Below the pieces are notes generated by a model. The model had not been told where the DNA came from. It made no database searches and was given only the letters and a program-made list of their open reading frames with translations. This document shows, piece after piece, positions 6,357 through 48,400 of a DNA stretch of 64,000 nucleotides. How positions within the stretch are numbered: the first letter of the stretch is position 1; every line of letters starts with the position of its first letter. The DNA comes from Botryllus schlosseri (Eukaryota): contig CM119371.1 of assembly GCA_051294905.1 (NCBI GenBank), forward strand, positions 25,794,001 to 25,858,000, written 5' to 3'. Made by a program: the position numbers and the translations under genes.

Positions 6357-6447
6357 CTGCAGTCTTCTGATCCGTCACAATAATCTGAAGCATCAAGGCA
6401 ACCCGATCCATCGTGACATGTAAACTCTCCTTTGGAACATTTCAATC
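6357..6447 (-). CDS. Exon A7 LKCSKGEFTCHDGSGCLDASDYCDGSEDC
   Basis: TTCCATAG| acceptor, CAG|GTACTG donor, 91 nt, canonical LDLa N-part. Confidence 0.9.
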
Positions 6448-24400: not shown

Positions 24401-27400
24401 ACTGTATAAAACGCTTTAAAAACCACCAGCAGCCGAAAGTAAATCAATAGACATCAAATAAACATTTACAATGCTTTATTCGGTCGATTCGAATTGATAT
24501 TGCTTCTGCAGGACAAATAAAGTGCGAGTTTCAAGGTCCCAATTTACCCTAATAACTAGGGCCATTTAAAGTCATTAAAGTCGTATTTTTTTCTCTGCAT
24601 CAGTAAGTCGTACAATCAATTTTAACGTAAAAACCGCATCCCTATGGGGTATATTATGAAAGTTATAAAGTCATATAAAGTCATATTTTCCTGGTTAGGT
24701 CATATTTGAGTTATAAAGTCATATTGTTGTATACTTTAAATAATAAGTGCCAATTGAAGCGGTGAAGCGATTAAGCACTAAGTAAGGCAAACTACAAGGT
24801 TAGCCTACATAACATTACAGTCACAGACCTATGAGGTCACACATTGCATTATGTGGTCAGATATTGCATCATGTTGCTACAAAATTTATTTTACTTCTGT
24901 GCACTGAAGTGGGGCGTCATTTGAAGTTCAGTCAGGGGGCAGGCAAGCTAAAAAGCTCAGTCTTGGTCTACTTATGTACAAATACATTACAACTAGCAGC
25001 GAACTGAAGAATATGACAGTTGAATATATACAGTTCACTTCAAGTTTATTCCTAAGAGACTTAGACACAAAGAGAATATCTGGTTCAGCATGCCAAAAGT
25101 GAGAGAATCTAATGCAGCGATAGTCAAAGCTATTGTAAATGAATTTAAGGACTTCAAAATCTCCCCTACAGAGAAAGTGTCCTGTCATATATGCAGTTGC
25201 ATTGTGAAGCATGAGAAACGTATTTTTGTTGAACAGCATCTTGCAACACTCAAGCATAAGATATGGATTGAAGCAAGAACGACCCCCTCTTCAGCTCTGC
25301 AACAAGCATTCTCTGCATCTGCTATGTTGTGTGTGTTTTACTCGTCAGTTCCATGAGTTGGTTACAGTTAAAATACACGATTTTCACATAAAGTCATATA
25401 AAGTCATATTTTCCAAAAAATAAAGTCATATTATTGATTTTTTAAGGTCATATAAAAATGGCCCTGCTAATAACCCATAATTTTGTGGGTTGTCTCGTTT
25501 GATACTGGAGCAATAGTCATCTAACATATGTAAGCTCCAATCTTCTCTGGTATCTTACCTCGAAGATCTTCAGATATTGTGGGACACTTTCCCCTTGCCC
25601 ATCGCTGACTATGCAATGTTTTCCGGGAAATTATTTCGATATTTTAGCTTTTGAACCACTTTAATATCAGTAATTGCTGCAAACACTTTTATTTGAGAAA
25701 AAAAGATGACTTGACCATGGTGTATAAATATATAGCCAAACGCATATAATATAATGCTAACTTACATCAGTCTCATTTTTCTGCATCGAAATGTGGGTAA
25801 AGTTGGTCAAATTGCAGGGCAAATGAGATACCCGACGTTAGAAGCGACATGATGGTAATCTGTAAGCGTCTCTACTTTGACGCAAAGTTATTTCTTTTGA
25901 ACATAACGATACATGTATCCAACGGAAGCCTCATCGTGTAAGAAGTTAGTGAATGCCGTTCGGTCTATGTTTCGTAAATCCAACCATCAGTTTATGTCAC
26001 GTGACATTAGTAGTGTTGTTGTTGCACGGCCCAATGCTAGTCTTTTCACGTGGCGAGGAGGCGTTCAGATACCCCTCCAACTTGAGTTGGAATTCTTGAG
26101 TCGACCCTGGTCGGATTGGAACCCGCAAAACATTGGTGTCGCAGCTGTGGAAAGTACCACAACCGCAACGCTATCTCGCCACTATTACTGAGTATCGTAA
26201 AACAATTATTGAGTCTGATGTTTCATTGACTGGTAAATTAAAAATAGAAATATTCACACAAATCTTTAAATATTAAGTTTTCAAGTGTTCGTATATAATC
26301 TGCAGTGCACATATACGGTTGATACTCCACAGCGGAGGTGTCAAACATGCGACCCGCGGGCCGCATCCGGCCCGCCAGACGATTTCAGCCGGTCCGCGAA
26401 GCGACTCCGAAAAATGGCTGTATTATGCAGCTCATTTCTGAAAAATGTTGAAATTACTTTCACTAAATAATCCCTCAAGACAGCCTATGTATGGTATGTT
26501 CATATGTTCATAAGCCACATTATAAGCATACACATCGGACAGAGTGGTGTTGTGGTTTCACTTTAATGCTAATCAGCAACTAATCGCTGCCATTGCCAGC
26601 TAATTCCGAGACGGTAAAATTGCACACTGAGCTCAGCGTTTTGTGGAAAAATCGACCTAAACGTAGTTAGTGACAAAAGTGAAAATCCAAGTTAGTATAT
26701 GCAGGCTACATGGAGAACATAATTGTTACAAAAAAAATATTTAAAATACCTCTGGTCCCACTTCATTTTCGCTAATGACAGCTCCTCGGCTTCCAGAAAA
26801 AACGAATCGCGATATGATAATAATAAATCAAATTTCATCGTCTGCGTTTTCAATTAAATATCGTGTATTCCTCACAACGCATACACACGACTATTGGTAG
26901 ATTATGACTGAAACAATGCCATTATAGCAATATGCCAACGTATACCATCGTCATAGTCACCGTTTTAGTAATTTATATAAATGTATTCAATCGAACAATT
27001 ATCGTCGTTTTGCCAATTCCATTAATTACGAATAAAGTTGAAAGAATAGACTCATAGGCTGTATAATTGAGTATTCAAGTGGGCAACACGCCTCACAGGC
27101 ATGGATTTTGAGACAACATTTTGGAATAATGTAACTGGTCCGGCCTTCGATCGATTTGAAGGTCTGAATCCGGCCCGTAACGCAACTTGAGTTTGACACC
27201 CCTGCTCCACAGTGTAAATTTGATGTACTTAATGCTAAACTCCAATGTATACAATTTTCAGACCTACCTGATCTGCACAGATACTTTCGTTTATGTTGGA
27301 GTTCAGGTGGAAGAATACATAGTCTGGAATTTCCCGACCGTCTTCTACACAGTGTGCTGTCATCTTCATTTAACGGATATGGCTCGTCAGATCCATCTCT

Positions 27401-30400
27401 AGCAAGGTTATATAGCAGATTTGGAATGCCGGCACAGGGAAAACTAAATAATAACTGAGATCATGCCTTGCAATGAGTCATGAGTCATGAGACATGAGTC
27501 ACCCAAGATTGGAGATGGACCGATTTAATGAATATATTATTAAATAAATATTCCAAAGCATATTGCACGATCCCAAAATGGCTTGTAGATCCATCATTCG
27601 ATCTTGTAATGTTCACCAAGCTATATTTATGTCATGTGTTTATTCCTATACCAACATGTTTATTATTATCCTGTTCTAAACAGTACTGGCTTCTAATTCT
27701 CCGATATCAATAAGTGGCATTCTACAACTTTCACATTTTTGCGCAACTCGTTATATTTCAGTAAACTCCGTTTGAAGCCACACTGCCTACTTCTTAATAT
27801 TAGAATGTGTCTAGTAGGAAGTAATAATAAGTTTACCATATTTTGGAATAGGGGCGCTTTTTTGAAATCAAAAAAGTTTAAAAAGTTCACCGAAATAAAA
27901 AAAGGCATATTTTCAAATATTTACGGGAAATATTGTTATGTAGACTATTTCAAAAAAAGCTCATCTTTCCGACTCGACTCCCGATTGACCCACTCGAACT
28001 TCCGCATTATAAATATTGCGTCTTCTGCGCCAATTTTCAGTTGACCTTATCCCTTAGCCTTGCTGTCAAAGCTGTAAATGGGAATAATTTCCGAAACGGA
28101 GAACATTTAAGTGTCCTTAGACGACATTTTCGATTTCCTGAAAAGGGAGGACATGTTGAAACCGTGTGGATAGTATATAAATACGTTTGCCTTCATTCCC
28201 CTTGGCATTGCGATGATAGCCAAACAAAGCAAGCATGTACGACGCTAACAATTTAACAACTTCGAAAATTACACCTGATACTTGTAATTTTGCGTTATTG
28301 CTGAATATGCATGTCGTAATTTTGAACACCAGAAAAAAACATTGCTAAACAAAAACCAGATTGAGTCTAACTATGTATTCGCAATTAATAAAGAAAGTGT
28401 CGGCCAACATGCGACCTTTCGTTTGATCTGGCGGAAAGGCCGTCGACGATGAAACCTATAGGCACAAAAAGGATTGACGCACGTTGGCCGAAGCTTTCGA
28501 TATCTATATATCCAGGCGCCGAATAGTCCTTTCCTTGCAAACTGAGCTCAGCGATTTACAGCGGACCCGCAATATCCTGCACTAACAATATGATTGACCT
28601 ATGAAAATTGAAAAATAGTCGCGCATTGCGCGGCTGGTGGCCCACGCAATATTTCGTCAATTGCATGTGGCCCTTTGGGCGAAAAGGTTGGCCACCCCTG
28701 TTTCAACGTGTTCCATATATCAGTTCTTCTATACTCGTAATTGAGTATAATTTTCCACTTTCACTTGTGTAGCAATATTGACTGCTTTGACCCACTCCAA
28801 CGGGGACTATGATTAGGAAAAGCTCTGTTTAGTCATAAATAAGTAATATAGCAATCTGAAAAAGTGCCAAGTTTTTTGTTATCTCAATCTCATTTTCACA
28901 CTGGCCTCGTATCATAAGTAGGGCTGGGCACAATGATTCGAGTACTCGAATCTGAATCGAGTATTAATTTTAATGATTTGAGTCGAGTAGCAAAAGTCGA
29001 TTTTTTCGAGTACTGAAATTATACGCTTATCGCCACTGAAAGTTAATTTATCATCTAGAATTATAGTTTCGATACTATCATCCATTGTTGAAGCCTTGAA
29101 ACCTCGATTGGCGGTATCGTAGCATATTAAACATATCGTACAAAGCTACAAAGGTTACTGGACATAGCACATTTCCGAAGTCATGGTTATCCCACAACAT
29201 TGTCACCAAGTGAAATGAAATCGGTATGGTCGAAAAATACCAAAGTATCATTTATGAGATGGATAACAGGCATTATATTCTTTGTGGTGGCATAAACGGT
29301 ACATATTTGAACTTTGACGCATTACAATCTGTTATGACGTCATAATGAGTGATACTCGATTACTCGACTCGACTCGAAGCATATTACGTGATTCAGAATC
29401 GAATCACTCAGGTACTCGATTTTGCCCAGCCCTAATCATAAGGAGCACTGTATATTTTCTCTCAATCATACACTGCATCAGTACAGACCCGTGGAATTGT
29501 ATTGTCAAGCTACGTGTACCTGCAGTCAATCGATCCATCGCAGAATTGTGCGAAGCGAAGACATCTTGGCCCATCCCGGCATTCGAGCTGCTCATCAGAA
29601 CATTTAATTCCTTGACAGAAAGAAATTGGGTACACTTTTAACATACTGTCGTTATTACTTAACGGTAATGATTCACAAATGTTTAAGGTTCCAATGAAGA
29701 CACTATCCTGAAACGGTTTTGAGATTAATTTGGACTGGTTTATATCCGTATTTAATGCACTTTCAAACCAGTGTTGGGATGACTCGAGTCATGACTTGAC
29801 TCGAGTTAGACTCGAGTCACTTTTCTCGCATGAATTGACTTGACTCGAGTCACTTTGCTAAAATGACTTGACTTGACATGACTCGGCGTATCAGAAATGT
29901 GGATTGACTCGTGACTCGGAGCAAAATTCACGAGTCAATTTCAAGTCATCAATTAATCGAGGTCGATAAAAATCACTGTATCTTGCATACGTTCTGATTG
30001 TTCGCGAAACAATGGTGTAACCCGTGAGAGCGACCAATCATTCATTCAATGATCGTGCGTTTTACTGAGCCTCTATTGTTCTCTCACAAATAAATTTACC
30101 ACAAACGAAGTGATCGAACCTTACAGCTTATTGTTGTTGTAAACTAGTAGTAAAGTAATATAATAGAAAATTATCTACCTTAACCAAACTTCTTGTTTTA
30201 TTGATTTTGAATTCGAATACAGCTTATATACTCCTCAACCATTGGCGCAGGCTCAAATTGTATCATATCAATATGTAAATGGGTAAAGGTTAATGTATTG
30301 CATCTTATCAATTCGTTTCTCTATTCTCTATTTCTGTCGATAACTATAAACTGAGACTACGTATATGTGAGCAATAGAGCGCCTTCTTGGGTGTTTATTC

Positions 30401-33400
30401 AACTCGATATTCGTTCATCGGTTCAAAATCAATGACCACTCAATCTGTATTTCAGACAGCTAGCAAAATGTATTGACGTAATCATGCCTCATACTACAAA
30501 AAGGCAACTTGACTTGAATTTTGACTTGACTCGTGACTTGACTTGACTTGACTCAGCTTGACTCGAGTCACCTCCGAAAATCGAGTGACTTGACTTGACT
30601 CGAGTGACCTTCGAAAACCGATTGACTTGACTTGACTCGAGTCAAAATGTGCAATGGCTCGAAATGACTCGTGACTCGAAGGTAGTGACTTGATCCCAAC
30701 ACTGTTTCAAACTACGCATTCTATAAACTACATTATGATGATGTTGTGTTAGAGATTGAACTGTCTTTGAATTTCTCATTTTACTTATAATACAAATTAC
30801 CTTATTTTAAAGTGTTGTAAATATCCTTTGTCTACTTATTGTGAACATTGAAGAGAGAAGTACCTAGCATGTGATGGTGTAATGTTCAACACACCACAAA
30901 ACCTTTGAAATGTGGCCAAGTTTTAATATAGGCTACTTTGCAGTGTTGGGATGACTCGAGTCAGACTCTAGTTCAATTTTTCTTGTGACTTGATTTGACT
31001 CGAGTCACTTTGAAAAATTGACTTGACTGGACTTGACACGGCGCTTCAGAAATGTGGACTGACTCGTGACTCGGAGCAAAATTTACGAGTCGATTCCAAG
31101 TCATCAAGTAAACGGTGTCGATTCATGCACTGTATTTTGTGTATGTAGGGAATGTTCGCGATACGCCGGTTTCACTTGTGAGAGCAACCAGTCATTCACT
31201 GATTATACATTCCAATGATATTTCATTGTTACATCACAAATAAATTGACCGCAAACGAAATGATCACAGCTTAAGTTGTTCAACTAGTAGTAGTAGTAGT
31301 AGTAGTCGATTATTCTAATATCAACATATATCTGTTTATTAGACGACCCTCTGCTTACATTGTACAGCGCTATCACCTTAACCAACCCTCTTGTATGATT
31401 TAAATGGAACGAATATTGTATATGCGTTTATACCCTCACGATGTGTAAATGGTTAGTCTATTGTACCATACCATTTAGTTTCAACTTCTCGAGGCATCGT
31501 ATTCGATCCTCCATTTCGGCCAACCAAGTCACAAGGCTCCGAGTCACAAGTCAATCTCACTTTTATATTTTTGACTCGAGTGAAGTCGAGTCATTTCCAA
31601 TTCCCACCGAATCAAGTCCGACTCCAAGTCAGCGAACAGAGGATCGAGTCCGAGTCATGGTATTATGACTCGAGTCCGAGTCCAAGTCATTGTGTTGACT
31701 GCTCAGTCTCCAGATAAAGTCTTCCTAAACCCACTTTTTAAACTCCGTTTGGTGATATTGAATGGTTCGCATTTATAATATACTGATTTTCCTCACTTTT
31801 AGCAGTTTCTGGTCGCATTTTCAAGCACCAGTACCAACAAACGAAATCCCAATAGTGTGTTGGCTTCGAAATTACAATGAAATGTCGGTATTGGCCGTCT
31901 GAATCTCGAGTCAATGACTTGCTTCAAGTCATGCGCAATGACTCGAGTCCAAGTCGAGTCAATACACAGATTAACTCGAGTCGAGTCGAGTCATTTCCGT
32001 ATTTTGTGAAAATGACTCGAGTCGAGTCGAGTCATCTGAAAATCGTGACTCGAGTCATTACAACCCTGCTGTATAGTTACTCACCGTATTTTATTAGCAG
32101 TACTGCGTGTGGGTAAGCGATACAACGCATTTTGCATGTATATTAAACGTTTTATTCGTTATTCGATTCAAAATAAATGACCAATTAATCTGTCTTTAAC
32201 ATAGCTAGCAAAATGTAATGACTTTGAATGATCACTCAAATTTCGGAAATTCAATTGGACTTGAATTGTGACTTGATTCATGAATTGACTTGACTTGACT
32301 CGAGTCAACTCCAAAAACGGCTGACTCGTCTTGACTCGAGTCACCTCCGAAAATAGATTGACTTGACTTGACTCGAGTCGAAATGTGCATTGAGTCGAGA
32401 TGACTCGTGACTCTAAAGTAGTGACTTGATCCCAACATTGATACGTTGTGCCGTTTGGGTTTCGGTAAAGTTACCAAAATAAACTGCGAATGACTGCAAA
32501 TAATCCTTAGTCAATGTCTAGCGCAACTGCCAAGTCTTATCAACAGAACTCACACTACACGATGTAATCTAACTCTGAAATGAGACTGCATGGGAAATTG
32601 ATTTTATATCGAAAAGTGCGCGACGAAAAACTGCAGAGTATACAACATTATCAGTATCAAGCAAATGGGAGAGTCACCAGCACACCAGCAGATAACAATG
32701 GTTTTGAATGATTCCCAACAAATAATTGTTACCGTGGATTTTTCCCAGCAACTTCGTAGGAACAGACAGTTTTATCTAGTGAATGTAAAAAAGTACCCAA
32801 AAATATTAACGTTTCGTGCAATATTACGCATTTTATACTGCAATTATTCTTCTGTCACAAATTTTCCAAACATCCACTTTTATAGTCAGAAAGTTTTCCA
32901 TCGTAGGTCAGATCCCACGTGTTATATAGGCACAAAATAGTCACCTATAAGATTTTTTGTTTCGATTTCACAGCTAAAATTCGAAGTATATCCCTATTTT
33001 TGAAGCGTTATTGTGATCGCATTTCGTTCACCAACTGTACAATGTCATCCGTATATATATAGATAGCGTGCACGATAGAATGAGATTCCAATATAGTTCA
33101 TCCGTCTCCTGAATGAGTTTCATTGCTTTAGTCTACTCAACAATTGCTTGAGCTGTGGATGCGGAACAGGTTATTTCCGGTTGGAAAGAAAACGAGTTAT
33201 TGTGATGGGTCGAAGTCTTAAATAATACAAATACATAAAAAGGCGATAATGCTTTGTTCATATACTTACTATCACTACAAAGATCGTGTCGTATGTGTCG
33301 GAGTGAGAGGGGAAGGATACAAAGTAGTCCCGGTTTCGAATATTTGACTCTTCTACATAAAGTTCCATTATCTCCATACGTCGCATATGGTTCATCGGAT

Positions 33401-36400
33401 CCGTCGCTAGAAAAATATTTATAACGAATGTATTTGTTGATGCCTAGCCTATAAGCGGAGGATTGTGTGTAAAATTTAGCCAACCGCTGCGGTTTGTCAG
33501 GAACATATGCAGTTCTGTCTACTCTAAATCGGGCGTCAGGCGCTTGTACTACAATAACTACATCGGTTCCAAAATTCCTGCGAATTTGCTCATCGCCTAT
33601 TTATTCACTATAATTAGTCCACACAACCAACTAAGTTTGGTTTGTGATCGCGAACCTGTAAATTATCAAGGTTTCGCTTTCCGAACACGAATGCGAGCCG
33701 GACGTTCGTAACACCCCCAATGCATACTCGCAATCAAATACATGAATATTTTCAGGAAATGAACTAATATGTTCTCGCTCATCATTCAATCACCAATACC
33801 TGCAATCTTTATATCCGTCGCAAAATCTTCTAGGATCAATACACCTCGATCCGTCACTGCACTGGAATTCCTCCATAGAGCAGTGTATTCCTGTAGAAAT
33901 AATTATTACAACAATTCACTCCATTGCACTAAGTTTGCGTTGAATTACCGGGAATTGAATGATAGCACTACTTGTTGCAATTGTCAACGTTTTTCAATAT
34001 GATTCAGGTGATCATATACCAGTTAAGCGATTATGACAAGTGGCTTACACTTAAAATCGATCAAGCCGCCTCATGCGCATTGCGCACTATCTTTACCTAT
34101 GATAGTGAAACACAATGACAAAATAGTTGTATACAAGTCACAAGACAAGCTCACATTATAGTTTTGACTCGAGTCAAGCAACCACCGATCCAAGTGCGAG
34201 TCCTAGTCAGGGTGCAAAGTGTCAAGTCCGCATCATGATATTCGGACTCGAGTTCTAGTACTGAACGCCGTGTTCACTGTTCGGTCCCTAGTTAAAGTAA
34301 CGTTCATCTCACAATTTTACAGTTTTGCTTGAGGTATGTCGACCCTGATGGGTCGCATTCATATTCCAATACTTTTTCTTACTCGCAACATGTTTATTCA
34401 AACAGATAAAAGACAGTTTGTTTCCTTACCGGCAGTGAAAGACACAATGTCAATATTGCGGTAACTTTACATTTTTTTCGAAGTTGCCTTGCTCGTATGA
34501 CACATTATGATGTGCTCAAAGTAGCCAAGACTGCTACGCTAGTAAAAGTAGACGTAGCGACCCAGAATTATACTAAACCACCATTAGAACTAGGAAATTT
34601 CGAAGCAGAAAAAACTACATAACCGGGAAATAGAATAAGCTGACTTTGAAAATTATTCAATGAGGTAAATAGTGTTTAAAAGCAGTCGCACACACGCTGC
34701 CATTATTCGTAGTCCACACTTGAACTGGGCAAAATCGAGTACCTGAGTGATTCGATTTAGAATCATGTGTTACGATTCGAGTCGAGTATTCAAGTATCAC
34801 TCATTATGACATCACAACAGAATGGACTATGCCAAAGTTCAAATATGTACCTTTTATGCCACCACAAAGAACATAATGCCTGTTATCCGTTACATTAAAG
34901 ATACTTTGGTATTGTTTCGACCATACCGACTTAATGACACTTCTTGACAATGGTGTGGGATGATGATGACTTGAGAAATGTGTTATTTCCACTAACGCTC
35001 GTATATTTGCACTATTATTTGTCAAAACTACATTTCTCGTTACTAAATTAGCTTTCGGTAGCGAGGAGCGTATAATTTCAGTACTCGAAAAAATCATCTT
35101 TTATTACTCGACTCGAATCAATAAAATTGATACTCGATTCAGATTCGAGTACTCGAATCATTGTGCCCAGCCAGACTCCAAACCCGGAAACTGACATATA
35201 TGGTGATGGTGTCGAGAACTGGTTTGGTTTGTGTTGCTATACATCATACGCAGTAGGTATATATTGTCAACTGCATAAGCAATCGACAGTATAATGTGTT
35301 ACAAAGAATGCTTTTGGTATCGAACAGTGGAACAGTGGAACTGTTTTCACTCCGGTACCACCTTTCAAAAATGTGTCGGTATGATGACCTCATCCGTATT
35401 AATACAAGGCCCGCAGTTAATGAGGCTATGAACACTAGGGGAGATGTGGTACCGATGGATCAAAAATTGGAAAATGATCGCTGGCCCCAAAATGTTCAGC
35501 CGAAAACCGGAGATCTTTTGCTGGCTCAGCACTTTGATACAAGCTCTACCTGTCGCGCACATATACATGAATATCCGTCTTTTCAAAAAATATTTATGGA
35601 CGTTTAAAATTAGTTGCTCGAACGTGTCATTGGTCCCCACCCGGTGGGTCCGATGGCACACGACCCGGGGACCTATGACACATATACCCAAAAAATCTCA
35701 GATGTGACAACTTTTCTTGCTCAGTATTATAATCTAAGCTGCAGCAAGCCAAAGAAAAATGTTTGGTCGCAACCGTCAAAAAATAGAATAAATATTAACT
35801 CAAATGTTGTCATAAAATCACGTTTCGATTTAGGCTCGGACTTATAAATTTGAGGGTACATACATATTGCCCGAAAATCGGCAGTGTGACTTCCAAATAC
35901 CTCGTTATAGCGATAAAACATCATATGCAATTATTACATAAAGATTTTCTGTACGTAGTCATGTTTCATTTGTTTCATGATTAGTATGCTTGATTATTTT
36001 GCTTGATTTGGCTATTGTATCATCGGTCCCCACCCTACGAATTTTATACATGAATCGGAAAAATTCCACTCAAGGAAAGAACTGAAAAAAATAATAGGTG
36101 CCATTATATGGCCTGATACAAGCACTACACTTCACAATAAAAATGATTGCTGGTTTGTTCGTGTTAAAGGTTACAAAGAAAAATGTACATGTCGATCTAA
36201 ATTTAGTTTACACCCCCCAAAACAAAAAACATCTGTGAGAGACCCCATAGCTCGCGCACGTCGAATTTTTTTGTATGAGAGGAAAGATTTTGCCAGCATG
36301 CAATTGTAGACAAGTTCACGGAGTGTAATCATGGAATTATCATGGAGAATTTTCAAAGTATTTTCGGTCCCAGTGATCCATCGGTATCACATCCCCCCTA

Positions 36401-39400
36401 CGTATAAGTTTGTATCGGATACTACCGCATTACCGCATTGCGCGATTAAGAAGTCAAGTGAGAATATGGTAGATCGTATCATGATTCCAAACTTTTTGCT
36501 GATATCTATTTACTGTGATGAAACTATCGTATGGGATACCATATATGTGGCAAGACACTGCCCAAAGGAACATTGTAAACGCTGGATAAATAATATTGAC
36601 CGATACTTCCGTGGAAAAGATTTTGATCACTCCATATATATGGCGTGCTAAAGACCGTCTGCGAATACAACCCCTGGTATTTTGGTCTCTCTCTGAACAG
36701 AATGAAACGCTCTGCTTGTCCGATATAATAGTATTTCCCTTTACTATAGTGCAGCTACCAACAACTAAGCATGTGTTGGATGGTGCGGACCACCGGATGA
36801 ATACCACTGCTCACGAATACTCGTGTTACAACTATGAACCCAAAATTTCATATTAAGATATGCCATTGCGACAAAACAAAATTTTGGAGTTTATTACCCC
36901 ACCACCCGATCTTGTTATGAGTAGGGCTGGCCACGATGATCGAGCAGCCTACTCGAATCAGAATCGAGTACTAATTCGCATAATACATTGTCCGGTCTGG
37001 CATGGACCGTTAAGGCGTAAGCTTATATTCCCTTGCAAGTCCTCGTCGAAATTCTTGTCAAAGCGACGAAAGATATTGATTTTATGGGATTATTATATCA
37101 TTTGATTGCCCAGTTGATACGTTTGGCGACGTTCAAAACGTCAATATGTTATTTCAGCATTGTGGTATTATGTGGCCCGAGTCGCCGCTAGATATAGTGT
37201 ACAATTGTACATTAATATAGGCTATCACTTAACTGAAATATATGACGTCACGTGACGTCATGAGGTTCACGTTCGCGTTCACACAGAACCTTTGAAAAAG
37301 GTTCGTGTTCACACGAAACTGAACCATTCAGAGGTTCACACCATACCTGAAGTTTTCCACTTTCCCTTGTGTAGCAATATTGACTACATTGACCCACTCT
37401 AACGGGGACTCTGATTAGGAAAAGCTCTCTTTAGTCATAAATAAGTAATATGGCAATATAAAAAATTCCCAAGTTTTTTGTTACTTGAATTTCATTTTCA
37501 CACTTGCCTCGTATCATAAGGAGCACTGTATATTTTCTCTCAATCACACACTGCATCTGTACAGACCCGTGGAATTGTATTGTCAAGCTATACGTGTACC
37601 TGCAGTCATTCGATCCATCGCAGAATTGTGCGACGAGAAGACACTTTGACCCATCCCGACATTCGTCATCAAGTAAACGGTGTCGATTCATTCACTGTAT
37701 TTTGTGTATGTTCGGTTTGTTCGCGATACGCCGGTGTCACTTGTGAGGGCAACCAGTCATTCACTGATTGTACATTTCACTGATATTTCATTGTTGCATC
37801 ACAAATAAATTGACCGCAAACGAAATGATCACAGCTTACGTTGTAGTAGTAGCAGTAGTAGTAGTAGTAGATTATTGTAATAGCAACGTATCTATGTTTA
37901 TTAGACGACTCTGTGCTTACATTGTACAGCACTATCACCTTTACCATCCCTCTTGTTTGATTTAAATGGAACGAATATAGTATATGCGTTTATATTCTCA
38001 CGGATGTGTATATGGTTAGTGTATTGTACCATACCAATTTGTTTAAACTTTTCGAGGCTTCGTATTCGATCCTCCATTTCGGCTGGTAGTAACAGAATGT
38101 AGCATGTAGCTGTATAGCTACTCACCGTATTTTATTAGCAGTACTGCGTGTGGGTAAGCGATACAACGCATTTTGCATGTATATTTAACTTTATATTCGT
38201 TATTCGATTCAAGCTAAATGGCCAATTAATCTGTCTTTAACACAGATAGCAAAATGTAACGACTTTGAATGATCACTCAAATTTCGGAAATTCAATTTGA
38301 CTTGAATTGTGACTTGATTCATGAATTGACTTGACTTGACTCGAGTCAACTCCAAAAAACGGCTGACTCGACTTGTCTCGAGTCACCTCCAAAAATAGAT
38401 TGACTTGACTAGACTCGAGTCAAAATGTGCACTGAGTCGAGATGACTAGTTACTCGTGACTCGCAACATTGATACGTTGTGCCGTTTCGGTTTCGGTAAA
38501 GTGACCAAAATAAACTGTGAATGACTGCAAATAATCCTTAGTCAATATCTAGCGCAACTACCAAGTCTTATCAACAGAACTCACACTACACGATGTAATG
38601 TAACTCTGAAACGAGACTGCATGAGAAATTGTTATTATATCGAGAAGTGCGCGACGAAAAACTGCAGAGTATACAACATTATCAGTATCAAGGAAATGGG
38701 TGAGTCACCAGCACACCATCAGATAACAATGGTATTGAATGATACCCAGCAAATAATTATTACCGTGGATTTTTCCAAGCAAATTCGTAAAAACGGACAG
38801 TTTTATCCGGAGAATGTAAAAAAGTACCCAAAGATATTAACGTTTCGTGCAATATTACGCAATTTATAGTGGAATTATTCTTCTGTCACAAGTTTTCAAA
38901 ACATCCGCGTTTATAGTCAGAAAGTTTTCCATTGCTAGGTCAGATTTCACGTGTTATAGGCACAAAATACTTGCCTATAAGATTTTTTGTTTCTATTTCA
39001 TAGTTAAAATTCGAAGTATATCCCTATTTTTTGAAGCCTTATTGTGATCGTATTTCGTTCGCCAATGGTACAATGTCAACTGTATTTATTAGGCCTATAT
39101 ATCTAGATAGCGTGCACAATAGAATGAGATTCCAATATAGTTCATCCGTCTCCTGAATGAGTTTCATTACTTTAGTCTACTTACCAATTGCTCGAGCTGT
39201 GGATGCTGAACAGATTATTTTCGGTGGGAAAGAAAACAAGTTATTGTGATGGGTCGAAGTCTTAAATAATACAAATACATAAAAAGGCGATAATGTTTTG
39301 CTCATATACTTACTATCACTACAAAGATCGTGTCGTATGTGTCGGAGTGAGAGGGGAAGGATACAAAGTAGTCCCGGTCCAAAACCGTTGACTCTTCTAC

Positions 39401-42400
39401 ATAAAGTTCCATTATCTCCATACGTCGCATATGGTTCATCGGATCCGTCGCTTGAAAAATATTTATAACGTATGTATTTGTTGATGCCTAGCCTATAAGC
39501 AGAGGATTGTGTATAAATTGAGCCAACCGCTGCGGTTCGTCGGGAGCATATGCAGTTCTTCTAACTGTCTACTCTAACCCTAGCGTCAGGCGCTTGTACT
39601 ACAATAACTGCATCGATTCCCAAATTCCTGCGAATTTACTCATCGCCCATTTATTCACTATAATTAGCCCACACAACCAACTAAGCTCGGTTGGTGAGCG
39701 CGAACCTATAAATTATCAAGGTTTCGCTTACCGAACACGAATGCGATCCGGACGTTCGTAACACCCCCAATGCATATTCGCAATCAAATACATGAATATT
39801 TTCAGGAAATGAACTAATATGTTCTCGCTCATCATTTAATCACCAATACCTGCAACCTTTATATCCGTCGCAAAATCGTTCAGCATCAATACACCTCGAT
39901 CCGTCGCTGCACTGGAACTCCTCCTTAGAGCAGTGTATACCTATGGAAATAATTATTATAACAATTCACTTCATTGCACTAAGTTTGTGTGGAATTAACG
40001 GGAATTGAATGATAGCACTACTGGTTGAAATTGTCAACGTTTTTCAATATGATTCAGGTGATCATATCTACCAGTTAAGCAATAATGACAAGTGGCTTAC
40101 AGTTAAAATCGATCAAGCCTCCTCATGCGCATTGCGCACTATCTTTACCTATGATAGTGAAACACAATGACAAAATAGTTGTATACAAGTTACAAGTCAC
40201 AAGACAATCTCACATTATAGTTTTGACTCGAGTCAAGCCACCACCAATCCGAATGCGAGTCCTAGTCAGGGTGCAAAGTGTCAAGTCTGCATCATAATAT
40301 TGGGACTCGAGTTGTAGTACTAATCGCCGTGTTCACTGGTCGGTCCCGAGTTAAAGTAATTTTCATCTCAGGATTTTACAGTTTTGCTTGAGATATGTTG
40401 ACCCAGATGGGTCGCATTCATATTCTCAAACTTTTTCTTACTCGCAACATGTTTATTCAAACAGATAAAAGACAGTTTGTTTCCTTACCGGCAGTGAAAG
40501 ACACAATGTCAATATTGCGGTAACTTTACATTTTTTTCGAAGTTGCCTTGCCCGTATGACACATTATGATGTGCTCAAAGTAGCCAAGACTGCTACTCTA
40601 GTAAAAGTAGACGTAGCGACCCAGAATTATACTCAACCACCATTAGAACTAGGACATTTCGAAGCAGAAAAAACTACATAACCGGGAAGTAGAATAAGCT
40701 GACTTTGAAAATTATTCAATGAGGTAAATAGTGTTTAAAAGCAGTCGCACACACGCTGCCATTATTCGTAGTCCACACTTGAACTGGGCTAAATCGAGTA
40801 CCTGAATGATTCGATTCAGAATCATGTATTACGCTTCGAGTCGAGTCGAGTATTCGCGTATCACTCATGATGACATCACAACAGAAGGGACTATGCCAAA
40901 GTTCAAATATGTGCCTTTTATGCCACCACAAAGAACATAATTCCTGTTATCCGTTACATGAAAGATACTTTGGTATTTATTAGACCATATCGACTTCATG
41001 ACACTTCTTGACAATGGTGGGGGATGATGGTGACTTGAGAAAAGTGGTATTTCCAGTAACGTTCGTATATTTGAACTACTATTTGTCAAAACTATATTTC
41101 TCGTTAGTAAATGAAGTTTCGGTTGCGAGGAGCGTATAATTTCAGTACTCGAAAAAATCGTCTTTTATCACTCGACTCGGATCATTAAAATTGATACTCG
41201 ATTCAGATTCGAGTACTCCAATCATTGTGCCCAGCCAGACTCCAAACCCGGAAACTGACTTATATGCTGATGGTGTCGGGAACTGGTTTGGTTTGTGTTG
41301 CTATACATCATACGCAGGAGGTATATATTGTCAACTGCATAAGCAATCGACAGTATAATGTGTTACAAAAAAGCTTTTGGTATCGAACAGTGGAACAGTG
41401 GGACTGTTTTCACTCCGGTACCACCTTAAAAAATGTGTCGGTATGATGACCTCATTCGTATTGATACAAGGCCCGCAGTTAATGAGGCTATGAGCAATAC
41501 GTATAAGTTTGTATCGGACACTACCGCATTACCGCATCGCGCGATTAAGAAGTCAAGTGAGAATATGGTGGATCGTATAATGATTCCAAACTTTTTTGCT
41601 GATATCTATTTACTGTGATGAAACTATTGCATGGGATACCATATATGTGGCAAGACACTGCCCAAAGGAACAGCGTAAACGCTGGATAAATAATATTGAC
41701 CGATACTTCCATGGAAAAGATTTTGATCACTCCATATATATGGCGTGCTAAAGACCGTCTGCGAATACAACCCCTGGTATTTTGGTCTCTCTCTGAACAG
41801 AATGAAGGGCTCTGCTTGTCCGATATAATAGTATTTCCCTTTACTATCAGAGGTGGTCAAAGTAGTCAAGAAAGCTACTCAAGTACAAGTAAAAGTAGGG
41901 GAGATGTGGTACCGATGGATCAATAATTGGAAAATGATCGCTGGCCCTAAAATGTTCCGCCGAAAACAGCAGGTCTTTTGCTGGCTCAGCACTTTGATAC
42001 AAGCTCTACCTATCGCGCACATATACATGAACATCCGTCTTTTCAAAAAATATTCATGGACGTTCAAAATTTGTTGCTCGAACGTGTCATCGGTTCTCAC
42101 CCGGTGTGTCCAATGGCACACGACCCGGAGACCTATGACACATATACCCTAAATACCTCAGATGTGACAACTTTTTTGCTCAGTATTATAATCTAAGCTA
42201 CAGTAAGCCAAAGAAGAATGTTTGATCACAACCGTCAAGAAATAGAATAAATATTAACTCAAATGTTGTCATAAAATCCCGTTTCGATTAAGGCTCGGAC
42301 TTATAAATTTGAGGGTACATACATATTGCCCGAAAAGTGACAGTGTGACTTCCAAACACCTCGTTATAGCGATAAAACATCATATGCAATTATTACATAA

Positions 42401-45400
42401 AGATTTTCTGTACGTAGGCATGTTTCATTTGTTTCATGATTAGTATGCTTGATTATTTTGCTTGATTTGGCTATTGTATCATCGGTCCCCACCCTACGAA
42501 TTTTATACATGAATCGAAAAAAATACCACTCAAGGAAAGTACTGAAAAAAATAATAGGTGCCATTATATAGCCTGATACAAGCCCTGCACTTCACAATAA
42601 AAATAATTGCAGGTTTGTTCGTGTTGTAGGTTACAAAGAAAAATGTATATGTCGATATAAATTTACTTTACACCCCCCAAAACAAAAAAAAACATCTGTG
42701 AGAGACCCCATAGCTCGCGCACGTCGAATTTTTTTGTATGTGAGGAAAGATTTCGCCAGCAACCAATTGTGGACAAGTTCACGGAGTGTAATCATGGAAT
42801 TATCATAGAGAATTTTCAAAGCATTTTCGGTCACAGTGATCAGTCGGTACCACATCTCCTCTACTTCTTTCATGAACAACCTAAATTTAGAAGTAGAATT
42901 GACTGACTTTAAAAGTACTCAAGTAAGTAAGTAGTTGTGAAAACGATCCTGATTGGATGGATTATAAAAAAAGTACAAATTGAGCTATGTGATAGGTGAC
43001 GAGCTTGATTCATATTGATGCATACCAGCAGGTATCCAAATGATAGTATTGATAAGGAAATGCGATACTAATCTTCTGTTTACTCGAACAACGCGTCATG
43101 GAAAATAGCATGGTATGGCGCCACCCCCTATAAGGCCCGTAGTTTAATCGAAGAGCAATATGGAGAAGTTGTATAGGATACGGTGTAAACACTTTGCGCG
43201 ATTAGTAAACGTTAATAAAAAATATGTTGGACCGTAAAATTGCCATATTGTGTAGCTTTAATTCCAGAAATTAAAGGCATTACTGCACTTGCTTTTATAC
43301 TTCAACATGTATGTTATTCCGACAAAAGAACTGATATTAATTATAACTCAAAGTATATAATATTGGGAATTGAAAGTGAAATATAAATACTACTTCTAAA
43401 AGCAGAATATGTATTTCATGTTTTTAGTCCAGAAAGTTTCAAAGGTGGTATGCTAAAACAGCTCTAAAACTAAAAAAAAGTCAAAGTCCACTCTTCCAGA
43501 TTAGGACATGCCATGGACATATATATGCTAGATTACGATATGACAAAAAAATGCTAGATTGCGAAACATCAGTTTCAAACGTTATAATGAGCCATATATA
43601 CTGTGATGAATTATTTCATATGGGCGAAGGGCGACAATGAGTTATGAACGGAACCACGCCAACCCGCCACCTAAATTATATTCACAGATACTTTCGTGAA
43701 ATCATACTGGTTACTCCGTATCCACTGCGTGCGAAGCGCGACGAAAATTCTGTGCTTTTCTAAACTTTTATGAAAATTAAATGTTAATACTGCGTGAAAA
43801 CAGTTCCGAAATTCCTCAGGCTATCTTCCTGATTGGAAGATTGAACTACTTCTGCTTGACAAACTGAAAACAGCGAAAAGTAAGTAAGTAGATCACAAAA
43901 TATTAAGAAGTAGAAGTAGAAGTAGCGAAAATCAGATCTACTTGAGTAAGTACCAGAAGTAGAAGAAAAATACTTGAGTACTTCGAAAAAGTAGAAGTAC
44001 TTCGTTACTGACCACCTTTGTTTTATATAGCGCAACTACCAACAAGTAAGCATATGTTTTATGGTGCAGACCACTGGATAAACACCACTGCTCACGAGTA
44101 CTCGTGCTACAACTATGAACTCAAAATTTCATATTAAGATATGCCATTGTGACAAAACAAAATTTTGGAGTTTATTACCCCACTACCCGATTTTCTTATG
44201 AGTAGGGCTGGCCACAATGATCGAGTACTCGAATCAGAATCGAGTACTAGTTCCAATGATTCGGGTCGAGTAGTAAAAAACGATTTTTCCGAGTACTGAA
44301 ATTATACACTTCTCGCCACTGAAAGTTAATTTACTAACGAGAATTATAGTTTCAATACTATTTTCCATTCTGGAAGCCTTGAAACTTTGATTGGCCGTAT
44401 CGCAGCATACGGAACATAGTCCAAAACTACTACCATTACTGGAAATGTCATATTCCGAAGCCATGATCATCCCACAACATTGTCAGAAAGTACAATGAAA
44501 ACCCTATGGTCGAGAAAATACCAAAGTGTCTTCAATGCAATGAATAACTGGCATTATATTCATTGCAGTAGCATAAAAGGTACATATTTGATATGTGACA
44601 TATTACATTATGTTATGACTTAATAATGATTGATACTCGAATACTCGACTCGACTCGAAGCATAATACGTCATTCAGAATCGAATCACTCAGATACTCGA
44701 TTCTGCCCAGCCCCAGTTAGGCGATGTCACTGCTGTAAGCTAAATTAATATCGATTTAGCGACTCGAGCAAAGTCAGGTAAAAATTGTTGGTACATATAA
44801 TTAGGGCTGGGCAAATTTGAGTACCTGAGTGATTCGATTCTGAATCACGTATTTTGCTTCGAGTCGAGTCGAGTATTCGAGTATCACTCATTATGACGTC
44901 ATAACAAAATTCATTTTGCCAAAGTTCAAATATGTACCTTTTATGCGATCAAGAGCAATATAATGCCTGTTATCCATCACACTGAAAATACTTAGGTATT
45001 TTTCGACCATACCGATTCCATCACACTTTGTGATTTTGATGTAGGACGATCATGACTTCGGAAATGTGTTGTTTCTAGCAACGTTCTTCGCTTTCAATTT
45101 TTATTTTGTACGCTGCGATACGGCCAAATAAGATTTTAAGGCTACCACAGTGGAAACTAGTTTCGTAGCTTTGATTCTCGTTGATAAATTTAATTTCAGC
45201 GGCGAAGAGCGTATAATTTCAGTAGTCGTAAAATTAGTATTTCACTACTCGACTCGAATCATTGAAATTAATACTCGCTTCAGATTCGAGTACTACATAT
45301 AATGTGCTGCTACGTTGCTACAGCAACGTTGAGTACATTATTTTCTAGTAGTCTAGTATCACGAACTGTAATATTTTCATGAGCTCAACGCACTCGGAAG

Positions 45401-48400
45401 TGAGGTTGATGGATGTTACGGAGAGACGGCCAGTTCGTTTTATGAATTTCCTGATTTCCCCGTTCTCAATGGGAGTTGCCGAGTTCTTTGAAACTATTTT
45501 GAGCAAAATCTAGCAGGTCCCATTTTAACTTCACCTTTTCGTCTAACCGCGAAAGTCACACGCACGATACATGCAGTGATCGCGGACAGTGAAAAGAACC
45601 AATTTGGTAGAAGGTCATGTTCTGTCATTTCAAATGAAACTTTAATATCTTTCATATTTACCGATCCTGCACAATTTCATCCTTTCATGTTCCAGATGCA
45701 GCGGTAGAATACAAAGTGATGCACCACGTGTAGACTTCCCTCTGCATAGTGTCTGATTGCTATTGTCAAAAGTGGCATATTGTGTCTCGTCCGACCCATC
45801 GCTGTCAATAGAAATTGTGTTATGCAAGATTGATTATTAGTCGATTCGTTGGAGTAATCTCATATAGTCATGTCGTGGAATAAGGCTAGATAAACGACTT
45901 GTGCCGCTCTCATCAGACTTCAAACAGGATATGATCATGGACTCTGTGGCATTGTTTATAATTAGGAAACGGTGGACGGACTTTTAGTTGAGTGCAATAG
46001 ATACTGTGTACACGAAATTCTAAAAGAGCCGCCCAGCAGGTATAAATCTTTTTGTACCAGACAACTTGTCGTCAGAGCAGGAGAAACTATAGGAGGTACT
46101 CTTTTTATGATGGTGCGAAAGGATCTTAAAATCGGAGGACCAGTTCCCTTTCTAATGAATAAACAACAACTTATCTAGAGTTTGAACTTCCTATGACTCG
46201 CTGCATTAGAGCGGTAGTAAGATCGTAAATTCAACACAAAATAAAGATAAACGACTAACATGCTGAACGTTTTAAATTAGTAGTGTTGCATCCAGGGTTG
46301 AATTTAAAACAAATATCAATGTAAAACAAACATGTTTAAAACAAAGCCATTGTTTGAAACATGTTTTTATTCTTTTTGTTGTTGTTGTTGTTGTTTATTT
46401 TCGGCCATGACGTCACGAATATTCAATTGTGGCGTCATAGTGGATTACCATTGACAATTGAAAGTATATGGTGAATATAGCTCCTTTGACGAAATATCTG
46501 TACTATTGCTGTTGAACCGACTATTTTTAGGGTGCCAACCATCTCATATCGATATGCGTCGGCTATATCTGGTAGCAATTGTCCGCAGGCTCATACAACA
46601 TGTTTTTTTGGAAAGTATTTACACAATTATGGCATAATTTTGCAACTTGAAAAAACACAATTGTTTTTTTAAAGGAGCCTTTGTTTAAAACACCGTTTGT
46701 TTAAAATGCAACCCTGGTTTCATCACATGATATCACAGATTCGTGTGACGTCTGTGTTTGCAGTTAACGTATTATTAATTTGGCGCTCAGAAAATCACAG
46801 CCATTCAGATGTCTACGCCAGCTTTGCTCGGTTAAGCATAATTGCACTCCATTGTTTTAGGTGAAAATTTATAGAATGATTGTGTAGTATTTTCAAGTAG
46901 CTGTAAGTTGAATATAATATTAAATTCTCAGAACAATCACAATTGCACTGAACGTACAGAATATTTGTTATGTCACCATCAAAAGAATGTTACAATTCAG
47001 TCCTTGGTATCGACACTTACATGAATCAAGATACGTTCCCCACTTGAGAACTGAAAATTATTGATGCAAAACGCATAGTCTATTTTCGCGAAGTTCTATT
47101 CCCTGATCCTAAATGAACTAGCTAGGAAATATATCTGATTGCAAATTTACCGCTTGCATGAGTGAACAATATAGTTTAGTAGGTCGCCAGGTATGGTTAC
47201 CTGCAATCTCTATCTCCGTCGCAAAAGTATGAAGCTGGTATACAGCCAGATCCATCGCTGCATTCGAAATCTTCTTCGGCACATTTCAATTCTAGAGAAG
47301 TATTGAATAGATAAATTAAATCGTCTATTTTTTTCTACATGTAACGGACGGCCGAAATCTTATCACTACGGACTCTTGGGATTTCGTTATAACTGTATGT
47401 AAATAGCAACTGTTTGCTTCCATACTAGCGTATGCGCTTTAAAGGAAAATTAACCGTCTGTTACTAAGCTTGTCATACTGTTCAACGAATAGTTATGGCT
47501 AATATGAGGACTCTAAATATGTGTATTTCAGTGGATTGTCAGGGTTTAAATATCTACTATCGCGTTCGATTCCTGCCTGTCGTTCTCAATTAAACTCAGC
47601 CACAGCCGAGGGTAATCGGGTGTCGAATGTTATTTAAAAATCACTTCAATTTCATTATTACGGGATACGGGAAATTAAGCCCGAACGAAGGACGTCACCC
47701 CGATGGCTGAGATCCACATGTTCGCGGTGGCGATTAGTCATGAAATTAAATTTAAATAGCCCTTAACTCTTGAAAAGAGGCACCCGAAAAGTCTTCGAGT
47801 TAATAAATATTAATATACAATGGATATTGTATTGAAATTAAATATGCACCATAAACATTTCGTGTGAACCATATCACGTAGAAGGGATTAGATGTTTGTT
47901 CATAATTACCAGCTTTGCATAACGTATTTCGGCGTTTTTGTAGCTCGGGCGGGAGGATACAAAGAACGTGTGGATATTTCGATCTTCTGCACAACCTGCC
48001 ATCGTTAGAATCATGTTCTGACGCATATCGCTCGTCGGATCCGTCTCTGACAAAAAATGCCTTAGATTATATTTCATATTCTGACGCACATGGTTGATCG
48101 CGTTGGGTCCTCGGAACGTAATGGACAATTCTTGACCACCCGGCATCAGTAAACGATATGTCTCGTGTATTAAGTTTCATCTCGCGTTAGCCCTGTCCCA
48201 AAGTTTCTGTCAAACTGATCTCTTTTCTTCAGTATCCATTAGGCCAGCGGTGGGCAATTATTTTCCTCCGCGGGTCAAATGAGAAAAATAAATACGTTGG
48301 CGGGTCGAATGAAAAGTCTTAGCTATATCCTCTAGCGTTTTTTAATTTTATTTCCAAATTACATTGGTAATAAATGCGGCTCAGTAAATGTTTTGATATT

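Follow-up and report, generated by a model that had tools for sequence, protein, structure and literature searches.

Ascidian receptors built on arrays of low-density lipoprotein (LDL) receptor class A repeats were described in Ciona by Kamesh et al. (2008), who reported an ascidian lineage-specific expansion of LDLRR-GPCRs, G-protein-coupled receptors (GPCRs) with 1-10 tandem N-terminal LDL-A repeats and no leucine-rich repeats; in the part of that paper available to us, no ligand is assigned to them (PMC2396169). A full-text literature search by the name LDLRR-GPCR returned nothing beyond this paper. Here we describe a gene of Botryllus schlosseri which likewise carries tandem LDL-A repeats. 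It lies in a stretch of 64,000 nucleotides (assembly GCA_051294905.1, contig CM119371.1, positions 25,794,001 to 25,858,000), hereafter called the window, from whose first letter all plain positions below are counted. Each repeat is encoded by a pair of exons, A and B, and includes an extra two-cysteine linker with a variable loop, which the available part of the Ciona paper does not describe (PMC2396169). The likeness to the Ciona receptors is one of architecture. In one B exon of a tandemly duplicated pair, four adjacent codons of this loop have been replaced in an otherwise unchanged exon, and among young duplicates of the family the loop accumulates amino-acid changes about three times faster than the neutral expectation.

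The module shares with the LA repeats of LDLR and LRP (PF00057) cysteines 1-5, the aromatic residue before C4 and the CDGxxDC-x-DGSDE cage. Exon A encodes cysteines 1-5 of this LDL-receptor class A calcium-cage domain, and exon B opens with DGSDE, the end of the cage. Unlike in LDLR and LRP, an intron splits the module between C5 and DGSDE, the sixth cysteine stands 11-15 residues past DGSDE and not 2-4 (this interval often holds an N-x-T sequon), and two further cysteines follow. The sixth cysteine opens the loop, of the form C-R-R/K-x5-11 (its start being R-R/K/G), after which come C-I-L-P, about 10 residues predicted to form a helix, and the last cysteine. Together, the exons of an A+B pair encode, in frame, a module of about 76 residues that contains 8 cysteines.

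Two other groups of GPCRs with LDLa ectodomain modules are Lymnaea GRL101 and the vertebrate RXFP1/2, in the latter of which the LDLa module is needed for signalling (as cited in the available part of PMC2396169). Unlike the window gene, GRL101 and RXFP1/2 also have leucine-rich repeats, and RXFP contains just one LDLa, of the canonical type. We know of no relation of GRL101 or RXFP to the variable loop. Conotoxins and some defensins combine a conserved cysteine scaffold with bursts of replacement in the loops after duplication, and with frequent multi-nucleotide codon changes. These are single small secreted peptides, whereas the window loop is a repeat within a large multi-module protein, and in the family of the window gene the rate excess is found only in young duplicates of two genomic clusters. 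Judged from sequence and modelling, the repeat is a variant of the LDLa-repeat family with an added fast-evolving linker, which is predicted to form a hairpin.

The duplicated modules on which the analysis is centred consist of the following elements.

33270-33406, minus strand: exon B4, 137 nt, with AG acceptor, GT donor and frame
39314-39450, minus strand: exon B3, 137 nt, with AG acceptor, GT donor and frame
33800-33890, minus strand: exon A4, 91 nt, LDLa core C1-C5 of the module completed by B4
39850-39940, minus strand: exon A3, 91 nt, LDLa core of the module completed by B3
33334-33345, minus strand: four variable codons of B4, AAA TAT TCG AAA, encoding KYSK (residues K21, Y22, S23, K24)
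39378-39389, minus strand: four variable codons of B3, AAC GGT TTT GGA, encoding NGFG (residues N21, G22, F23, G24)
32068-36977: lower copy of a tandem segmental duplication (self-BLAST), A4 and B4 inside
38109-44253: upper copy of the same duplication (self-BLAST), A3 and B3 inside

Exon B4 encodes DGSDEPYATYGDNGTLC-RRVKYSKPGLL-CILPLSLRHIRHDLCSD, with a loop of the ancestral type, and B3 encodes the same peptide except for the derived loop RRVNGFGPGLL. When the duplicated units were aligned with MAFFT, the two exons differed by 7 substitutions spanning 9 nt (plus-strand positions 33335-33338 and 33341-33343 against 39379-39382 and 39385-39387) and were otherwise identical, the closest further differences between the units lying outside the exon, at 33257 and 33409. 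A first-pass annotation of the window, made from the sequence alone, had reported this identity, the seven substitutions, the KYSK and NGFG codons and scattered differences in the flanking introns, and all of this is borne out: the introns show about 6% mismatch throughout. Its reading frame is also right, being the sole frame conserved in the six B exons of the window and in homologous tunicate proteins. Over the units 32068-35431 and 38109-41493, 212 mismatches in 3348 aligned columns (6.3%) are scattered, and the exon patch is their largest cluster, the runners-up holding 4 mismatches each. Scattering 212 mismatches randomly over 3348 positions produced a cluster of at least 7 in 0.5% of 20000 trials. 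The B3/B4 patch is real, and goes beyond independent neutral substitution.

The direction of the change was read from five further copies of the B3/B4-type exon on the same chromosome. Whole-locus and intron comparison gave the copy tree (((L002/L017, L003), B4), B3), with L005 and L006 as outgroups. Intron mismatch is 1.9% between the copies of the paralog gene (L002/L017 and L003), 2.4-2.9% from these to B4, and 6.1% to B3. The variable codons read KYSK in B4, KYLE and KYSE in the two paralog-gene copies, KYRQ in L005, and NGFG in B3 only. Since the first two variable codons still read KY in L002, L003 and L005, and the more distant L006, with its shorter QFE-type loop, has no B3 state at all, NGFG is on this comparison the derived state, and all 7 changes fall on the B3 branch. 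No state intermediate between KYSK and NGFG was found among the genomic copies compared.

The paralog gene lies about 250 kb away (L017/L002 and L003; G000:C1:25573141 and 25568416) and carries a tandem pair of its own at the corresponding position. Its divergence from the window gene is about 1% in the introns near B5-B7; around B2, where 556 nt can be aligned, it is 5.8%. Both of its units are B4-like and stand 7.6-7.7% from B3 in MAFFT flank alignments. That both are B4-like despite the near-identical introns implies that large conversions or unequal exchanges occur at the locus. The L002 exon (G000:C1:25573141-25573275) carries 3 synonymous scaffold changes absent from L003, where 0.46 would be expected at 1.9% divergence, and this excess may stem from a short conversion from an unsampled copy.

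In an alignment of 26 distinct B exons, the columns that do not vary are those of DGSDE, of the three cysteines, and of Leu and Pro in ILP. Variation in sequence and in length is greatest in the loop between the first and second B cysteines, which ranges from 8 to 13 residues and has no conserved column past its first Arg; the loop sequences which had been quoted for the other repeats were all found as given. The N-x-T/S sequon before the first B cysteine and the Arg directly after that cysteine are kept in most of the 26 exons, and the loop-start run R-R/K-R resembles a dibasic processing site.

Substitution rates were obtained from Nei-Gojobori counts for 58 within-group pairs, and the rate test was carried out on 8 phylogenetically independent young pairs, with the intron mismatch fraction (K) in colinear BLAST high-scoring segment pairs (HSPs; 0.9-12.8%) as the neutral yardstick. 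Pairs with unequal loop length or unalignable introns were left out, and the pair L002/L003 was kept after removal of the deleted codon. Over the 8 pairs, 28.0 non-synonymous loop changes were observed against 8.5 expected from intron K, an excess of about 3.3 times, and 22 loop codons carried an amino-acid change against at most 8.5 expected (P 8e-5). Synonymous changes agreed with expectation both in the loop (3.0 against 2.9) and in the scaffold (8 against 8.3), and scaffold non-synonymous changes were held to about 0.45 of neutral (14 against 31). With the focal pair removed, loop non-synonymous changes were 21.5 against 7.0 expected, with 18 changed codons (P 4e-4). Counted against all synonymous changes, those in the loop that alter the protein make up 28 of 39, where their share of sites is 0.42 (P 2e-4). 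Expressed per site, the young paralogs have a loop non-synonymous rate (dN) of 0.160, against synonymous rates (dS) of 0.048 in the loop and 0.045 in the scaffold, and the synonymous rates match intron K. Two of the focal residues changed independently elsewhere: S23 to L or R, and K24 to E or Q. CpG hypermutability was considered as a cause and rejected, as about 1 in 17 loop changes is a CpG transition (loop alignments judged by eye).

All 35 extracted B exons are free of frameshifts and stops, whereas introns at similar divergence show 20-46 gap openings per about 2 kb, indicating that the coding exons are under selection. The acceleration is confined to young duplicates in two clusters and does not extend to the whole family. 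The conserved scaffold with a diversifying loop that the first-pass annotation had put forward, and the dN/dS above 1 at the loop that it had offered as a check, are accordingly found in young paralogs, and the older subfamilies do not show the dN/dS excess. The diversification of the loop in young paralogs hints at selection for new binding specificities, and does not prove that it is adaptive.

A structural prediction was made with AlphaFold from the 26-sequence exon-B alignment. It gave strands at residues 15-21 and 25-30, a turn at 22-24 and a helix at 33-42 (mean predicted local distance difference test, pLDDT, 61), so that Y22-K24 probably lie at the tip of a beta-hairpin. The prediction for the full-length homolog P0002 (described below), made without an alignment, was unusable (mean pLDDT 36.6), and a profile search of PDB with the exon-B module returned chance matches only (E at least 1.5).

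How could four adjacent codons change together? A plain micro-inversion was rejected, as the reverse complement of the changed 9-mer fits the derived 9-mer at 1 of 9 positions (read by eye). No exact template of at least 8 nt for the derived segment was found within 5 kb on either strand, and distant 9-10-mers occur at chance level. The ancestral sequence contains the palindrome TTCGAA, and an inverted copy of the overlapping 10-mer, CGGTTTCGAA, fits the derived CGGTTTTGGA at 8 of 10 positions. A template switch there accounts for 5 of the 7 changes, the other two being transitions, one of them at a CpG. Because the changes fall on one branch, in four adjacent codons and without intermediates, one complex event with one or two point changes is favoured, and a single complex mutation fits better than seven selected point changes.

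The reading that we favour, with about half of our confidence behind it, is that the gene encodes a chain of at least seven or eight small, disulfide-rich modules with a constrained scaffold, that the loop alone can vary freely and in young duplicates apparently does so to advantage, and that the B3 patch, the most extreme case, is one complex event which was kept. A tandem duplication of about 6-7 kb added a whole in-frame module. In the B3 lineage four adjacent tip codons were replaced, KYSK becoming NGFG with the loss of two lysines, most likely through one complex multi-nucleotide event, such as a template switch at the local TTCGAA followed by two later transitions. The patch was then retained at a site where novelty is tolerated or favoured. 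If other LDLa ectodomains are a guide, the acidic cage would bind basic ligands generically and the adjacent variable tip would tune specificity, so that duplication and tip divergence would widen the set of binding surfaces. Of this reading, the exon structure, the duplication, the polarity and the rates are shown by the data, and the hairpin, selection as the cause and the function are inferred.

Several observations weigh against this reading. The counts are small, and the neutral yardstick consists of intron BLAST HSPs. Runs of adjacent changed bases hold 20 of the 31 changes in loops (65%), but 147 of 764 in introns (19%) and 0 of 22 in the scaffold; multi-nucleotide changes or compensating +1/-1 indels inflate per-site counts, for which the codon test is a partial cure. 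The older comparisons are without acceleration: in the subfamily at 31 Mb on the same chromosome, the pair L036/L037 has non-synonymous loop differences (nd) of 2/25 against synonymous scaffold differences (sd) of 8/23.8 and the loop peptides of L036 and L058 are identical, and the B7 and B2 groups have a loop dN close to their scaffold dN. The second Asp of CDGYK-D-C, a calcium-binding residue, has been lost in A3, so the A3+B3 module could be decaying. The hairpin model, at a mean pLDDT of 61, is of low confidence and cannot show disulfides. The fit of the inverted template is not significant, since random patches reach it in 5.7% of cases when searched within 20 nt, 7.9% within 50 nt and 22.8% within 100 nt; the template switch that the first-pass annotation had raised as a caveat therefore keeps its local fit, but at a chance P of 0.06-0.23 and with two extra substitutions needed. 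Finally, RNA run X23 has depth 0 on the bins of A3, B3, A4 and B4, which, with about 6% of its reads sampled, is uninformative on expression.

On the adjacent runs of changed bases, the local inverted template, the lost aspartate, the older subfamilies that keep their loops and the missing X23 reads one could also build an account without selection. The loop would be an unconstrained spacer, struck by one complex mutation in a redundant and possibly decaying module, and the rate excess would reflect multi-nucleotide events or hidden indels. We consider this possible but rather doubtful. Neutral evolution cannot exceed the neutral rate, and with the focal pair set aside the changed codons still do so (18 against at most 7.0). 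A local mutation hotspot is made less likely by the synonymous count of the loop, which is at expectation. No cluster in the 3.2 kb of duplicated intron is larger than 4, so a neutral event of this size in a 33-nt loop has an a priori chance of about 1%, and the scaffold and splice sites of B3 are intact.

The stepwise diversifying selection suggested by the first-pass annotation, with seven separate point substitutions successively fixed in the tip codons of B3, we regard as unlikely. The family-level loop dN at about three times neutral and the independent changes of S23 and K24 in other copies speak in its favour. It would, however, have left no intermediate in any copy, placed 7 of 7 changes on the B3 branch and none on that of B4, and spared the remaining 128 nt of the exon altogether, whereas at about three times neutral an estimated 2-4 loop changes would be due on the branch, spread over about 9 free codons and not over 4 adjacent ones. 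Import of the patch, by micro gene conversion from an unsampled paralog or haplotype, or as an allelic KYSK/NGFG polymorphism captured by unequal crossing-over, is very unlikely, for although the paralog gene differs by about 1% in the B5-B7 introns while the B3 and B4 units differ by 6%, and the B4-like state of both its units speaks for large exchanges, the 15-mer around the NGFG patch occurs exactly only at B3 itself in the 495-Mb assembly, its one-mismatch matches are at the control level (30, against 33 for the reversed 15-mer) with none in a B-type exon, and the assembly holds no alternative haplotig of the locus. The high heterozygosity of ascidians also speaks in favour of this last alternative.

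The two duplicated segments are 92-97% identical in self-BLAST, with an intron mismatch in BLAST HSPs of 163/2655 (6.1%). One breakpoint of the duplication lies inside an exon, and is marked by a 5'-truncated copy of exon A5 between B3 and A4 (window 37599-37691), shown by self-BLAST of 29435-29585 against 37513-37665.

~37599-37665, minus strand: exon A5 remnant, the 3' 66 nt, with the donor kept and the acceptor and first Cys lost

As the remnant has no acceptor, it should be skipped, with B3 spliced in frame to A4, and the duplication of about 6-7 kb should add exactly one in-frame module, A3+B3 beside A4+B4. Gene conversion is not needed to explain the identity of the exons, as the 3 synonymous changes in about 38 sites of the A+B scaffold fit the intron divergence. 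A sharp-ended, transposon-like repeat of about 450 bp is present at 34725-35172, and also at 40784-41242, 28914-29440 and 44198-45307, two copies near 44.2-45.3 kb forming an inverted pair. Loose read ends stack at 34725 and 35172 in 4 of 4 sequencing runs; the word depth of the repeat reaches the hundred-thousands in the deepest run, and RNA reads of it are present.

The remaining exons of the gene in the window are listed below, the six B-type exons having been located by tblastn with the B4 peptide and the A exons by self-comparison of open reading frames (ORFs).

6357-55646, minus strand: multi-module gene, the part inside the window
55556-55646, minus strand: exon A0
47910-48046, minus strand: exon B1
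47201-47291, minus strand: exon A1
45662-45801, minus strand: exon B2
29520-29610, minus strand: exon A5
27268-27398, minus strand: exon B5
19528-19621, minus strand: exon A6
6837-6970, minus strand: exon B6
6357-6447, minus strand: exon A7

The order in the window is A0, B1, A1, B2, A3, B3, A4, B4, A5, B5, A6, B6, A7. All 13 exons have AG/GT sites, the A exons being 91 or 94 nt and the B exons 131-140 nt long, with compatible phases. The gene runs on below the window start, with B7 at about 7.8-7.9 kb, an A-type match at about 15 kb and a Cys-rich C-terminal exon at about 24.3-24.5 kb. Seven A/B exon pairs in and just below the window make it a chain of at least 7 modules. Six A exons were scanned with Pfam PF00057 (cut-off 24.1 bits): A1 (35.5), A4 (31.2) and A7 (30.0) score above the cut-off, and A6 (23.0), A0 (19.5) and A5 (17.0) below it. 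All these matches cover only profile positions 2-29 of 37. The calcium-cage residues CDGxxDC-x-DGSDE are present in A4+B4 as CDGYKDC-S-DGSDE. Where A4 has the second Asp of CDGYK-D-C, A3 has Gly and both paralog-gene copies have His, so that a canonical calcium ligand has been replaced twice independently. Over the C1-C5 core (81 nt), A3 and A4 differ by 3 synonymous and 5 non-synonymous changes, including this Asp to Gly.

The genome (495 Mb) holds about 50 B-type exons. Three protein searches of it gave at least 37, at least 34 and at least 14 B-type matches, partly overlapping, with clusters on contigs 1 and 3. A profile of the 26 distinct B exons, run over 1.84 billion representative proteins, matched 8 of them at E of 0.001 or below; the named clusters among them are two, both from Styela clava. 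Styela XP_039271686 (LOC120346100) has 7 LDLa stretches and a 7tm_1 domain. It shares the linker, as C-R-x-C-L-L-P, with the window gene, and its repeats are followed by a rhodopsin-type seven-transmembrane (7TM) region. P0001 and P0002 (715 and 794 aa), from public run assemblies, have a signal-peptide-like N-terminus and 7-9 modules. The profile-matched homologs show the same module order as the window gene, and the Pfam alignments of the full-length homologs stop at profile position 34-35. The Cys-rich exon after the repeats of the window gene is 51% identical over 55 aa to the Styela protein. A tblastn search of the window, of the 100 kb downstream of it and of the 40 kb upstream, with the Styela 7TM protein as query, gave no 7TM exon, so the window gene may encode a secreted form, like the transcript-derived P0001.

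A second cluster lies on the same chromosome (G000:C1:30.3-31.8 Mb), where B-type exons stand among many exons resembling the 7TM region of the Styela LDLa-GPCR. The B exons of this 31-Mb cluster have a conserved loop of the RRGKDSFTPRL type, and several of the 7TM matches carry one in-frame stop. A protein search with the 45-aa exon peptide found no match among longer proteins, a search with the 155-aa genomic ORF around B4 found no allelic ORFs, and a metagenome scan with two exon flanks around a gap found nothing.

Reads and contigs of other samples were compared with the locus. A contig from another sample spans B3 (39098-40237, 1140 nt) with 67 differences and 8 gaps. In three contig-based runs, the depth on B4 is 0 (X5), 0 (X7) and 0.62 (X6). 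A 1047-nt contig of run X7 aligns to 39130-39450, from the exact B3 acceptor through 184 nt of downstream intron, with 24 differences. The initial 706 nt of this contig are placed elsewhere, and it could represent a paralog locus or a partly spliced transcript. In RNA run X23, most of the depth found elsewhere comes from transposon copies.

The first-pass annotation had suggested a role in immunity, allorecognition or gamete recognition. This finds no support, as nothing links the gene to such roles, and no paper tying an LDL receptor to positive selection or allorecognition in tunicates was among the matches listed. One may speculate further about a tunicate-specific, germline-encoded recognition repertoire, in which about 50 eight-cysteine LDLa-plus-hairpin modules, in secreted proteins and orphan LDLa-GPCRs, would gain specificities for non-self, symbiont or gamete recognition by module duplication and rewriting of the four-residue tip, through partly templated multi-nucleotide mutation and capture of divergent alleles. 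We regard this as a long shot.

Our findings indicate that the ascidian LDLa-repeat unit studied here is more than a plain LDLa domain, being a module of eight cysteines to which a linker has been added. One short linker loop is where young duplicates diverge fastest, which points to a likely specificity-determining surface. In the case of B3 and B4, a multi-nucleotide mutation may have created a new surface patch in one step. The four codons per module offer a concrete target for population genetics, binding and structure work.

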